A stretch of DNA of 64,000 nt from Eledone cirrhosa (Eukaryota). Every line of letters starts with the position of its first letter. Positions within the stretch are counted from its first letter, which is position 1. The notes under the pieces were generated by a model that was not told the origin of the DNA, ran no database searches, and was given only the letters and a program-made list of their open reading frames with translations. The position numbers were made by a program, and so were the translations under genes. The stretch covers positions 8,370,001 to 8,434,000 of the forward strand of contig OZ024759.1 of the NCBI GenBank assembly GCA_964016885.1. Direction: 5' to 3'. This document shows, piece after piece, positions 18,061 to 45,120 of this stretch.

Positions 18061-18350
18061 TACCTTAACGGTTCAAGTTTTTCTTGAAAAACTTGAACCG
18101 TTGAGGTATCTTTTCTTAGTTATGTAAAAAATTTATAAAACAAACTTTGTATTTTATCTGATGAAAGCGTACCAAGGTTTTGGTACCCTTGAAATATATA
18201 TAATAGAATAAAAATGGTTTTATAAATATAGTTTCCATTTATTTAATATCATTGAATATTATACTCCAGAAAACTTGTCGAGTGCTCTGAATCAGTTATA
18301 AACATTTATATTTGTTGAATTACCAACAAATTAAATATCCCTTTTGCTTA
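18061..18350 (+). mobile_element. Short hammerhead-bearing element in (TA)n with a 48-bp 5' palindrome
   Basis: Palindrome 18061-18108, hammerhead 18150-18210, GAGTGCTC at 18280. Relatives at 30355, 35338, 39102 and 44550. Confidence 0.85.
18150..18210 (+). ncRNA. Minimal type I hammerhead ribozyme
   Basis: TATTTTAT CTGATGA aagcgtacc-aaggtttt-ggtaccctt GAAA tatata TA ATAGAATA; stems I and II pair and stem III is palindromic. Confidence 0.85.
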
Positions 18351-18971
18351 TATATATATATATATATATATATATATATACATATATATATATATATATA
18401 TATATATACATATATATATATATACATATATATATATATATATACATATATATATATATACATATATATATATATATATATATACTTATATATATATATA
18501 CATATATATATATATATATATATATATATATATATATATATATATACTTATATATATATATACATATATATATATATATATATATATATATATATATATA
18601 TATACATATATATATATATATATATATACATATATATATATACATATATATACATATATATACATATATATATATATATACATATATATACATATATATA
18701 CATATATATATATATATATATATATACATATATATATACATATATATATATATATATATATATATATATGTATATATATATATATATATATACATATATA
18801 TATATATAGATATATATATATATATACATATATATATATATATATATATACATATATATATATATATATATATATATATACATATATATACATATATATA
18901 TATATATATATATATATATATATATATATATATATATATATATATATATATATATATATATATATATATAC

Positions 18972-19340
18972 TATAATGATAAAGAACGAGGAATCAGTGT
19001 TGCATCATATCATATTTAATAATATATTACATATGTTTCTCTATCGATCAGCTCGAGGCAAGATCTATTATAGGTCGAACCTGATTGTGTACTCGAAAGT
19101 TCTTCATACACCAAACATATCTGACGAACTTTCGATTACAGAGTCAGGTTCGACCTATAATAGACCTTTCCTCTAGCTGATCGATAGTGAAACATATGTA
19201 ATATGTTATTAAATATGATATGATGCAACACTGAATCCTCGTTCTTTATCATTATGATATTATACTCTGCTCTGTGCCAGCATCGAGTGCTCAACCGGCA
19301 TACCGCCTACGGACGCAATTATCTTGCAGCCTAACAACTA
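18972..19340 (+). mobile_element. Fold-back hammerhead element in (TA)n
   Basis: Imperfect ~135-bp inverted arms 18974-19255; GAGTGCTC at 19285. Confidence 0.85.
19114..19207 (+). ncRNA. Type I hammerhead ribozyme with extended stem II
   Basis: AACATAT CTGACGA actttcgat...atcgatagt GAAAC atat GTA ATATGTT; perfect 7-bp stem I and GUA cleavage triplet. Confidence 0.9.
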
Positions 19341-19409
19341 TATATATATATATATATATATATATATATATATATATATATATATATATATATATATATA
19401 TATATATAT

Positions 19410-19722
19410 ATTAATAGAATATTAAATTCTAAGTGTTAATTGAACAAGTACTTTCATGCTTTCGCAATCTTCAGGTTCATAATATGTGGTGACAGTCAAG
19501 TTTGCAACAAACTTGACTGTCACCACATATTATGAACCTGAAGATTGCGAAAGCATGAAAGTACTTGTTCAATTAACACTTAGAATTTAATATTCTATCA
19601 TACTATTTCATTATAATACCATTATAAATTTTAAAGGATTGTAAATAAAACGAGTAAATCAGACAAAGTTGGAATTCCTCTTATTAATATAATCTTCTAT
19701 ACACAATCATACACACCCGTGT
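19410..19722 (+). mobile_element. Fold-back hammerhead element in (TA)n
   Basis: Near-perfect ~90-bp inverted arms 19414-19598 with a 3-nt loop at ~19506. Confidence 0.85.
19533..19571 (+). ncRNA. Very small type I hammerhead (mirror copy on minus strand ~19441-19479)
   Basis: TGAAC CTGAAGA t TGC-gaaa-GCA t GAAA gtac TT GTTCA; GNRA-capped stem II. Confidence 0.82.
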
Positions 19723-19802
19723 ATATCTACCTATCTATATATATATATATATATATATATATATATATATATATATATATATATATATATATATATATAT
19801 AT

Positions 19803-20390
19803 AGTAATACTAATAAATGTGAAGACTAAAACCTAAAGCGCGCTCGATAAGGATAAATATGTATCAAATATATAAGAATCCTAGAGCAAATATTTATTAA
19901 AATAATAGATTAAAGTTTAAGCAAAGAATCGCGGCTTTCACCCTTAACTGAATCTTCAGAAGATCCCGTTAAGGGTGAAAGGCTTATTTAATTTAGACAT
20001 ATTACGTGTTATATTCCCAGATTTCCACACGGGAATATACCGCGACGATGGTCTGACCCTATCGAGCCATAAAAGTGGTCACGACGTGGACCGATTTTTA
20101 AAAGATTTAATTTCTACTTTTAATGAGTTAGGACTTAGGATAACAGTGGCTACCAACCCCTCTAGCGTAGATTTCTTAGACATTAATTTAGACCTTAGCA
20201 CACACACCTTCAGACCCTTCCATAAACTAAACGAAAAACTTAATTACATTCACAAGGACCCATGCCACCCTCGCACTGTTTTTAGAAACTTCGTAAATAA
20301 TATCACTACTAGTAACTCTAACTTCTCCTCTTCTAATAAGGGTAACTTTGACAGAGCGGCACCCTACTATAACACGTATATATAAGTCGG
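19803..20390 (+). mobile_element. Penelope-like element fragment: inverted terminal-repeat piece joined to an RT fragment
   Basis: 19803-19960 matches the reverse complement of 24154-24311. ORF 19975-20385 has GIYRDDGL, VDFLDINLDL, LNYIHKDPCHP. Confidence 0.88.
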
Positions 20391-20487
20391 ATATATATAT
20401 ATATATATATATATATATATATATATATATAAATATATATATATATATATATATAAAATCAAAAGATGGTTAAAAGAGTTCCATGTG

Positions 20488-20556
20488 TTTTATTATGCGC
20501 ATTTCAAAAACAAATATCCTCATGAGATGATATTTGCGTTCTCATCAGATAAAATA
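20488..20556 (-). ncRNA. Type I hammerhead in a short element (20455-20666; family of 33047-33452)
   Basis: Minus strand: TTTTAT CTGATGA gaacgcaaatatc...gatatttgttttt GAAA tgcgca TA ATAAAA. Confidence 0.82.
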
Positions 20557-42174: not shown

Positions 42175-42488
42175 GAATAATGAAATACAAAGTAGTTTCA
42201 GATGTTAAAGTCCTTTATTGATAAGACTGTGATACATATTTCAATGACGTCAGTGACCACACGATTCCGCGTCCCAGTGTCATGATCTCATCAGACTGCT
42301 TATTACATAATAAGGCTACGTTCCCGAGGCAATCCAATTTGGCACTGGGACGCAGAATCACGTGACCGCTGACGTCATCGAAATATGTATCACGGCCTTA
42401 TTTCATTATTCTAAACATACTCCGCCATTACTATTGGAAAAACAACGTTGAGTGCTTCAATGGTATTACATGAATATTTACCATGAGT
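42175..42488. mobile_element. Diverged fold-back element; hammerhead core on minus strand (42288-42294)
   Basis: Imperfect arms 42220-42279 and 42343-42401; GAAA tatgta TC; GAGTGCTT at 42450. Confidence 0.72.
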
Positions 42489-43319
42489 ATATATATATAT
42501 ATATATATATATATATATATATATGTTTGTGTGTGTGTGTGTGTGTATGGTGTATGTATATATGTGTGTGTGGTGTATGTATATATATGTGTGTGTGGTG
42601 TGTGGTGTATGCATGTGTGTGTGTGGTGTGTAGTGTATGTATGTGTGTGTGGTGTATGTATATATATGTGTGTGTGCTGTGTGCTGTGTGTATATATGTG
42701 TGTGTGGTGTATGTATATGTGTGTGTGGTGTATGTATATATATGTGTGTGTGCTGTGTGCTGTGTGTATATATGTGTGTGTGTGTGTGTGGTGTATGTAT
42801 ATGTGTGTGTGGTGTATGTATGTATATATATGTGTGTGTGGTGTGTGGTGTGTGTGTGCTGTGTGTATGTGTGTGTGTGTGTATGGTGTATGTATATATG
42901 TGTGTGTGGTGTATGTATATATATGTGTGTGTGGTGTGTGGTGTATGTATGTGTGTGTGTGGTGTGTAGTGTATGTATGTGTGTGTGGTGTATGTATATA
43001 TATGTGTGTGTGCTGGTGTATATGTGTGTGTGTGTGTGTGGTGTATGTATATATGTGTGTGTGGTGTATGTATGTATATATATGTGTGTGTGGTGTGTGG
43101 TGTATGTATGTGTGTGTGTGGTGTGTAGTGTATGTATGTATGTGTGTGTGGTGTATGTATATATATGTGTGTGTGGTGTGTGTGTGCTGTGTGTATGTGT
43201 GTGGTGTGTGTATGTATATATATATATGTGTATGTATGTGTATGTATGTGTGTGTGTGTATGTATATATATGTGTTGTTTATTATCTAATTAAATAATAT
43301 ATATATATATATATATAGA

Positions 43320-43635
43320 AGAAACAACTAACTAGTAACATATAAATAAACAAATAAATAAACAAATAAAAACACACACAGATACCCGGATGTAGCACCT
43401 GCGCAAACTAAGCACACAACACACAGAAAAACAAGATGGCGTAGGACAGAACTAAGGAGAGGCACAAAACAAAGAAAAGAATCCCAGGTCACTGAAGATG
43501 TCAGAGAATGTGTGACGAAAGAACTTTGACAATATATGAACAACCAACCAACCGGAAATTTATAATAAATTGAAGTGAAAGCAACTGGTGCGTGTGTTTC
43601 TTATTGGCAACATGACCCTCCCAAAATATAACAAT
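43320..43635 (+). mobile_element. TGACCCTCCC-terminus element with hammerhead at 43488-43530 and upstream ACAAGATGGCG
   Basis: GTCA CTGAAGA t GTCA-gagaatgtg-TGAC GAAA gaac TT TGAC. Confidence 0.75.
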
Positions 43636-43913
43636 ATATATATATATATATATATATATATATATATATATATATATATATATATATATATATATTTAAT
43701 ACAATAACAGAGATAGTTTAAAGCTAAACTCTGACTGGTAACCATCTCACTCAACAAACATTAGGTTATATTAAAATATAAACCCAATTTAAGTGTTTGG
43801 GGTGCTAACAATATGTATAATGTGGAAAAACCCGTTGTATTATTTTATGAGATATAATTAAAGTTAAAGTATATCTATATATATATATATATATATATAT
43901 ATATATGAAATTG

Positions 43914-43980
43914 CCTTGTCTGACGAACGAATGCGGACGTTTCTTGTATCCGTCTTATTCGGGAAACCTCTGGTAATGAG
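43914..43980 (+). ncRNA. Type I hammerhead ribozyme
   Basis: CCTTGT CTGACGA acgaatgcggac...atccgtcttattcgg GAAACC tct GGTA ATGAG; GAGCACTC at 44037. Confidence 0.8.
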
Positions 43981-44549
43981 TTAATTATATTGTATTGTTT
44001 ATTATACATTAAATATTTAGCTCTGTAACTTACATAGAGCACTCTTCATTCCTCTCGCTTCTTCAACGGAAACTTCAAGACTTATATATATATATATATA
44101 TATATATATATATATATATATATATATATATATACTTTTATATATACTTTTATATATATATACTTTTGATTATTTATGCCCTTGAGAAGCTCAACTGGGC
44201 GAAACGTACGTAGGTGCTGTTTTAAATAAACATGTTTTAACGGTCTATTCTCCGATTTTTTACTTTCCCACGTATATATATATATATATATATATATATA
44301 TATTTATTAAATAACAAATTAATATTAATATATATATATATATATATATATATATATATATATATATATATATATATATATGATAATAATGGAGCTGCGG
44401 CGCTGCAAATGGGTTACATATGAAAAAGTTTGTCCTCATCAGTGGCCATCCAACCGTCGTAGGCATTTCGTCGCATTAAAGGCCATATACCTCAGGTTGG
44501 TGCGTTCAACGGCTAAAAAAAAGTCGTTGGGATATATATATATATATTT

Positions 44550-45012
44550 ATGTAAAGTTATATTTAAAATTGTTGGGTTACAACTAGTAAATATTTATAA
44601 CTGATATAAAAGCACTCGACAAATATTTGGAGTATATTTACAATATTAAATAAATGGAAAACTATATTTATAAAACCATATCTATTTCATTATATATATT
44701 TCGGGGATATCATATTAACAATATGCTATGCCTTCATCAGACAAAATACAATATAAACAGTTTTATAGATAAATATATTCGACATACCGTAATAAACATC
44801 AACTTCATTTGAAGAGGTTTACTGCTAGAGTAAACCTCTTCAAATGAAGTTGATGTTTATTACGGTATGTCGAATATATTTATCTATAAAACTGTTTATA
44901 TTGTATTTTGTCTGATGAAGGCATAGCATATTGTTAATATGATATCCCCGAAATATATATAATGAAATAGATATGGTTTTATAAATATAGTTTTCCATTT
45001 ATTTAATATTGT
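44550..45012 (-). mobile_element. Fold-back element, ~185-bp arms, mirrored hammerheads (minus core 44734-44740; plus core 44912-44918)
   Basis: Palindrome 44639-45013 with a 5-nt loop at ~44826; AAGCACTC at 44610. Confidence 0.88.
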
Positions 45013-45120
45013 ATATATATATTTATATATATATATATATATATATATATATATATATATATATATATATATATATATATATATATATATATATATATAT
45101 ATATATATATATATATATAT

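Follow-up and report, generated by a model that had tools for sequence, protein, structure and literature searches.

Penelope-like elements (PLEs) that encode an endonuclease (EN+ PLEs) have been described with inverted pseudo-long terminal repeats (pLTRs), junction palindromes and one-sided tails, together with a proposal of self-priming at the palindromic junctions (PMC3846280), and an inverted pLTR with an optional tail also appears in PMC8557442. PMC8557442 lists the origin of the tandem and inverted ends as an open question, and PMC11167929 leaves it without validation. The stretch examined here is 64,000 nt of the Eledone cirrhosa genome (assembly GCA_964016885.1, contig OZ024759.1, positions 8,370,001 to 8,434,000; hereafter the window), with 37% GC and 43% masked as simple repeats. 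Its islands are real, short, head-to-head, 5′-truncated PLE ends set in (TA)n. This architecture is a new instance of the PLE layout known from other animals, and the mechanistic gain is modest; the residual value lies in a testable geometric argument on how inverted PLE ends form. We favor, at a probability of about 0.55, the reading that the islands were made by twin priming from two fixed reverse transcriptase (RT) starts on one RNA.

The likeness to EN+ PLEs (PMC3846280; PMC8557442) covers the head-to-head inverted 5′-truncated copy, the junction palindrome, the tail at one end and the AT-rich targets. The tails differ, however, measuring 79–97 nt here and 30–40 nt in those reports; the insertions here are mostly stumps of 60–460 nt without an open reading frame (ORF), and a motif shared across families lies inside the tail. 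For the Anolis element Poseidon (PAc), a PLE of a different clade, in vitro work reported cleavage and extension of both target strands, RT starts at two sites, one on either side of the tail, and insertion without need of hammerhead cleavage (PMC11167929). All three features resemble the mechanism proposed below, and the main text of that report draws no link to inverted-arm junction geometry. The closest working analogue is twin priming by LINE-1, in which opposed cDNAs, one per target strand, are joined by microhomology (PMC12016303; PMC11702581). According to the same sources, the second LINE-1 start does not lie at one fixed 3′ distance and overlaps are short (median 12 bp), whereas here the second start appears fixed and overlaps reach 180 nt. 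Schistosoma PLE remnants likewise show opposite-strand minimal type I hammerheads 100–700 bp apart and many solo truncated copies; the available text of that report holds no junction analysis such as the one made here (PMC4209133). A literature search, with subscription papers mostly outside its reach, found no derivation of inverted pLTRs from two-start twin priming.

Inverted repeats were tested by self-BLAST and exact arm mapping within the window; pairs of short interspersed nuclear elements (SINEs), the repeat pair around 30548 and short inverted repeats at 5576 and 46221 were excluded from all junction counts. The initial annotation had described at least 11 islands as long palindromes pivoting at or shortly upstream of a hammerhead core, and all 11 named structures are indeed inverted repeats (self-BLAST E-values 6e-10 to 0). 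Their centers, with loop or spacer length in nt, are 18084.5 (2), 19114 (23), 19506 (3), 19958 (1), 33293.5 (0), 39328 (16), 41231 (1), 41709 (1), 44826 (5), ~17794 (10) and ~34470 (17). Near-perfect palindromes with loops of 0–5 nt account for seven (18084.5, 19506, 19958, 33293.5, 41231, 41709 and 44826), while spacers of 10–23 nt occur in the remaining four (17794, 19114, 34470 and 39328), the 23-nt spacer at 19114 containing the hammerhead core itself. The positions named for the two stem II cases, 17731 and 34337, are island starts (pivots ~17794 and ~34470), and "long" is a misnomer for four of the 11, whose short arms span only 21–44 nt. The exact terminal motif does sit on the longer arm in nine of the 11, with no regular-expression match at 19506 or 19958. 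The list was also selective. Eight extra head-to-head junctions (20616, 23625, 28930, 30530, 33605, 34216, 40720 and 42330), several distant from the core, bring the total to 19, all head-to-head in the ribozyme or tail sense. The parts are as follows, with arm starts and pivots given as offsets from C3 of the hammerhead core.

17733–17938 (+): family E insertion; tail arm (+), 40-nt tail-less arm (−), pivot at ~17794 within predicted stem II; the tail arm holds the spacer.
18063–18349 (+): family A insertion; symmetric pivot 18084.5 at −72 from C3 (18158); short arm of 21 nt that stops at an internal TAT.
18976–19338 (+): family K insertion; hammerhead (C3 at 19121) with a long stem II; arms start at −18 (tail) and +5 (tail-less).
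19414–19720 (+): family L insertion; the pivot at 19506 is symmetric, with a loop of 3, and lies −30 from the core (19538); arms 91/91 identical.
19804–19981 (−): family B tail arm with a 23-nt plus-strand arm; pivot at core position 4, a natural TTC-A-GAA micro-palindrome.
19982–20375 (+): RT fragment (YRDD) directly adjoining the short arm of 19958; 41% identity over 74 aa to ORF 22484–22984.
20458–20663 (−): family C insertion whose arms do not overlap; a tail-less arm with the hammerhead (−, from −70) and a tail-only arm (+, from +138) meet at 20616 via 3-nt microhomology.
20771–24311 (−): long 5′-truncated PLE comprising the ORF, the 3′ region and, at 20771, a family B end without tail; its inverted copy (23650–24311) bears the tail, and the junction at ~23625 is ~520 nt upstream of the core.
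21921–23611 (−): decayed ORF with frameshifts and stops; RT (YRDD), CxCX5C linker, GIY-YIG-like domain with CxxC and CxH.
28712–29488 (+): partial tandem of family H with a monomer of ~430 nt and a hammerhead (C3 at 29188); inverted tail-less arm from the stem II loop.
30345–30686 (unstranded): family A insertion; arms start at about −75 (tail-less, minus strand) and +35 (tail, plus strand).
33048–33449 (−): family C palindrome; pivot within ATAT, loop 0; 5′ start as in the 20616 arm.
33479–33632 (−): family D insertion, entirely downstream of the ribozyme; tail arm from +69, tail-less arm from +56.
34159–34243 (unstranded): family B mini-insertion of 57 nt; tail-only arm (−) and a 14-nt piece (+) that stops at the internal site; no ribozyme.
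34336–34522 (−): family E insertion; pivot at ~34470 within predicted stem II; short-arm end base the same as in 17733.
35336–35607 (−): solo family A arm with tail; reference for reads.
39103–39467 (−): family A insertion; tail arm from −32, tail-less arm from about −47.
40530–40886 (unstranded): family D insertion; arms start at −66 (tail-less) and +12 (tail) and are 91/91 identical where they overlap.
40911–41414 (−): family M palindrome; 183/183 identical, loop 1, pivot at core position 4; predicted stem II ~115 nt.
41462–41854 (−): family D palindrome; loop 1, pivot −64.
42221–42488 (unstranded): older family I insertion; arms 84% alike; tail arm from +12, tail-less arm probably from farther upstream.
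44553–45011 (−): family A palindrome; 183/183 identical, loop 5, pivot about −84.

The mini-insertion proper (34173–34229) has 2-nt microhomology at its joint and is flanked by 14-bp direct repeats (34159/34230), a candidate target-site duplication; the flanks elsewhere are (TA)n. Its 14-nt piece occurs four times in the window, always in family B, and is matched in 4 of 20,000 shuffles.

Each insertion generated its own mirror arm, as had been proposed: arms within an insertion are 97.5–100% alike in 11 of 17 short insertions compared, against ~70–96% between copies of one family. Inheritance from one palindromic master was rejected, since family E arms share variants within an insertion that differ between insertions; two unrelated RNA templates were rejected as a rule, the arms being too alike. 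Arm identity of 183/183 at 41231 and 44826 is also what a fold-back artefact of assembly or library would give. Such an artefact is nevertheless very improbable, as arms end at element-specific sites, flanks are unmirrored and many arm pairs differ by substitutions or indels.

Reads bear on the same question. Two samples of restriction-site-associated DNA (RAD; X7 and X8) and one contig set from a second study were aligned to the solo family A arm, on which thousands of records, from other copies, were placed; a fourth run, from another organism, contributed 12 records. The joint figures refer to 12 opposite-strand joints (24 ends) among the joints listed (15 of 22). Three joints recur in both samples at the same coordinates, with 63/68, 78/96 and 86/79 reads and 1–2 start places each, as expected of RAD loci, and other strand-switch joints occur in the second study's contigs. 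Coordinates make four of the 12 joints head-to-head and one tail-to-tail, with seven ambiguous; in all four forced head-to-head joints one arm starts at −69 to −81, and in two of them the partner lies wholly in the tail. At the family level, raw reads of both samples thus carry strand-switch joints; the window's own junctions lie outside that evidence, which is a point in favor of an artefact.

The sharpest signal of the dataset is the position of the short-arm ends, measured at 14 of the 19 junctions. In 10 of these (families A, C, D, E and K) the short arm ends 22–32 nt before a shared GAGTGCT-like motif, and in 12 it lacks 79–97 nt, the exceptions being 41231 (134) and 18084.5 (240). The end site is common within families A (3 copies), C (2), D (3) and E (2). 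Loose read ends at 35434 number ~10,000 per sample, with a consensus running into (TA)n in X8 and into the tail in X7 (agreement 0.78); they are read as a genome-wide mix of two 3′ ends.

A fold-back copy cannot hold sequence missing from its template, and snap-back of a single cDNA, a mechanism first proposed for these islands, therefore needs the tail arm to contain the other arm. Containment fails in nine of the 12 asymmetric junctions (20616, 23625, 30530, 33605, 34216, 34470, 39328, 40720 and 42330), where the tail-less arm reaches farther 5′; two of these, 20616 and 34216, have arms with no overlap within the element at all, a layout beyond the reach of simple snap-back. Snap-back is thus insufficient for the set as a whole, although it explains the seven near-perfect palindromes simply.

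From the two arm ends and the arm geometry, which are observed, we infer RT starts, strand displacement and joining as follows. Both strands of a TA-rich target would be nicked, and each would prime a separate cDNA on the same PLE RNA. Reverse transcription would begin at the element tail and at a fixed site about 80–97 nt upstream, on either side of the GAGTGCT-like motif. The upstream-started cDNA would lead, often reaching a family 5′ boundary 60–90 nt before the core that is probably the transcript start. A tail-started cDNA that stopped early would leave a plain inversion, while one displacing through would leave an inverted duplication, and the cDNA 3′ ends would be joined by short complementarity offered by palindromic words or stem II. 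The odds are about even that the inverted pLTR is a programmed twin-priming product, with two fixed RT starts that bracket a conserved cis motif, one per target strand, so that one-sided tail, palindrome and plain inversion would all come from one reaction and could be read off the many tiny insertions of this genome. If true, two-start twin priming would replace the published self-priming reading and tie the in vitro results to genomic structure. Junction geometry separates the models through the spacer-bearing arm, the short-arm end and the arm overlap, and a genome this dense in short, young insertions would permit a direct count of junction types.

Several points weigh against twin priming. 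The tail arm reaches farther 5′ in three of the 12 asymmetric junctions (17794, 19114 and 28930), and nine of 12 does not differ significantly from 50:50 (P about 0.07, by hand); the arm assignment at 34470 and 42330 rests on parsimony. Strand displacement by PLE RT is an assumption of the model, the transcript-start boundary is drawn from the arm starts, and family B is the only family tied to an ORF in the window. The near-perfect palindromes, with their loops of 0–5 nt, are simpler by snap-back, and later deletion of the center can also yield asymmetry (PMC8701086), a trend fitted by 19114, 42330, 28930 and 23625, whose arms have diverged most among the asymmetric junctions.

In the main alternative, snap-back with later center deletion, a tail-primed cDNA would fold at its 3′ end, copy itself until blocked near a protein-bound tail motif and be joined to the target, with asymmetry arising later on, when the palindrome is stabilized. 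This alternative rates well short of even odds. It accommodates the seven near-perfect palindromes, the near-identity of arms within insertions and the tendency of older junctions to be asymmetric, yet asymmetry is also found where the arms are identical (33605, 34470 and 40720). Center deletions are documented in mouse transgene palindromes (PMC8701086), but at 20616, 30530 and 40720 it is the tail-less arm that retains the family 5′ boundary, the other having lost 80–210 nt. Self-priming was proposed for rotifer PLEs (PMC3846280), and the family E cDNA is predicted to fold into a stem II hairpin (−5.6 to −11.4 kcal/mol), with the spacer of 17794 on the tail arm; the family B cDNA end, however, forms no hairpin at its pivot, and five of the seven symmetric pivots have loops of 0–2 nt, which leave too little room for a hairpin to prime. 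The fixed short-arm end demands an additional rule. A mixture of the two routes is plausible.

On the 5′ side, the symmetric pivots lie at about −84, −72, −64, −62, −30, +1 and +1, and the asymmetric junction starts range from −77 to +140, with one at −237 and those of the long element at −520 and about −2800. The arm-start count in the window entered 29 ends (34216 outside the count) with hand-assigned offsets; the set was picked by eye and is biased to core-bearing islands, these being easier to notice, and its ends are non-independent. Of the 26 starts that fall within the unit, seven lie at −90 to −60 (2.9 expected) and three downstream (13.9 expected), while 11 lie in the core and stem II (4.0 expected, nominal P 0.0009). 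The 5′ start is common within families C (2 copies), D (2), G (2) and A (about 3). The shared boundary at −60 to −90 may mark the transcript start or a pLTR boundary.

Stalling of RT at the folded hammerhead, which would set the pivot whichever joining route followed, had been suggested as one source of the pivots. It finds an echo in the excess of 11 starts, in two pivots on core position 4 and in the pivoting of both family E copies in predicted stem II. Among the 24 family A read-joint ends, however, none falls in the core and two fall in stem II, against 3.7 expected for core and stem II together; the stem II lean is confined to the window. Both core pivots coincide with a TTC-N-GAA micro-palindrome, the ribozyme is uninvolved at 20616, 23625, 33605 and 34216, and the window set favors islands that show a core. 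The pivot at 19958 does fall on the core, but the CTGAAGA there is the minus-strand mirror product of a family core that reads CAGAAGA in three other copies; the stem II placement of 17794 and 34470 is predicted from folding, neither family E copy retaining a CUGANGA core. Stalling is unlikely on this balance.

The other suggested source, a pivot at the RNA 5′ end left by ribozyme self-cleavage, is scarcely credible, and no supporting point was found for it. The predicted cleavage site lies 31–80 nt downstream of C3, and most arms retain an intact core upstream of it. Starts at this site number 0 of 29 in the window (by reading of offsets) and 0 of 24 among read-joint ends, four of which lie at −69 to −81; the read counts indicate no enrichment rather than depletion, as only ~1 end was expected for the core and the cleavage site. 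In Anolis, no RNA ends are reported there and cleavage is dispensable in vitro (PMC11167929). The role of the ribozyme is likely passive, stem II offering a hairpin and cleavage remaining unused. The initial annotation is thus partly supported overall, its ribozyme-centered reading mostly not.

The PLE identity of the islands, also part of that annotation, is supported by the hammerheads, by the RT/GIY-YIG ORF of family B and by the one-tailed head-to-head architecture. A type I hammerhead descriptor gave 13 matches in the window, compared with an average of 0.2 over 20 block shuffles, and further cores are visible in alignments. They are predicted minimal type I ribozymes with a short palindromic helix III in a terminal repeat, features as in PMC4209133; Rfam returned no hammerhead among the matches listed (150 of 316), which are all sub-threshold and mostly, to near completeness, microRNA families. 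Non-LTR (long terminal repeat) retrozymes, for which tandem repeats with a hammerhead in each unit were the criterion used, were rejected: the islands are solo or inverted, and the sole partial tandem, in family H, has one ribozyme.

Family B is the 3′ end of the decayed ORF 21921–23611, itself 5′-truncated at ~23611, short of the N-terminal part in which the RWK and DKT motifs of the Hydra clade would lie. RT is followed by a C-terminal GIY-YIG in this one ORF, as expected for an EN+ PLE; the endonuclease part scores 0.97 to a GIY-YIG cluster, while for the RT part a score of 0.88 to an RVT_1 cluster serves only as a lead. Pfam and NCBIfam profiles gave nothing significant (best RVT_1, E 0.011), and protein homologue searches gave no match at E ≤ 0.001. 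When compared by eye, the translation shows the CxCX5C linker, CxxC and CxH around a conserved E and N, and no CCHH cysteine pair between GIY and YIG, all in agreement with the Hydra-clade description; the (TA)n flanks of the islands match the insertion preference of that clade. By motif pattern, the family B ORF appears to fit the Hydra clade of PLEs, for which PMC8557442 describes the C-terminal GIY-YIG, the CxCX5C linker, the CxxC and CxH, the lack of a cysteine pair between GIY and YIG, the hammerheads and (TA)n insertion. In contrast to that clade, the ORF here is decayed and 5′-truncated and its hammerhead core reads CAGAAGA, and the assignment is by motif description. The other families have no ORF here; their putative PLE status derives from the hammerhead, the shared tail motif and the architecture.

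The predicted family B hammerhead carries the CAGAAGA core (A at position 4) in all three intact copies (24154, 20832 and ~50652), with an apparently full stem III by eye. In two of three copies, the family B 3′ region holds a SINE-like repeat (21057–21254 and 50915–51024) at one shared site, with differing lengths, and the repeat is absent near 23890; its presence in one arm only of the long element was weighed as two-template evidence and set aside as uninformative. A second PLE-like RT ORF at 24560–26460 (−) is heavily decayed (YLDD; weak RVT_1 match), with a hammerhead-like core on its antisense strand at 24583. At 20377 and 24478, a common end word of ~17 nt beside (TA)n closes two different RT-bearing fragments.

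Two family F copies (38872–39043 and 43908–44076) have a hammerhead arm fused tail-to-tail to an opposite-strand terminal-motif segment; their junction is identical, and the composite unit seemingly moved as one. Possible inter-family head-to-head joins occur at 39573–39940 (family E tail with family F arm) and 29836–30140 (B-like tail with another hammerhead-like arm), and these, if single events, would need two different RNAs. Solo family G hammerhead units at 33696–33857 and 41920–42083 have both ends in common (5′ start −68) and carry no terminal motif. The 30530 insertion is enclosed by an inverted repeat from another family (30169–30339 and 30757–30928), with a (TA)n center. Toward the window edges lie a decayed, putatively LINE-like element at ~3900–6973 (+), with RT and a C-terminal CCHC/nuclease-like region, and an 82-bp tandem satellite at 61224–64000 with units 95–99% alike.

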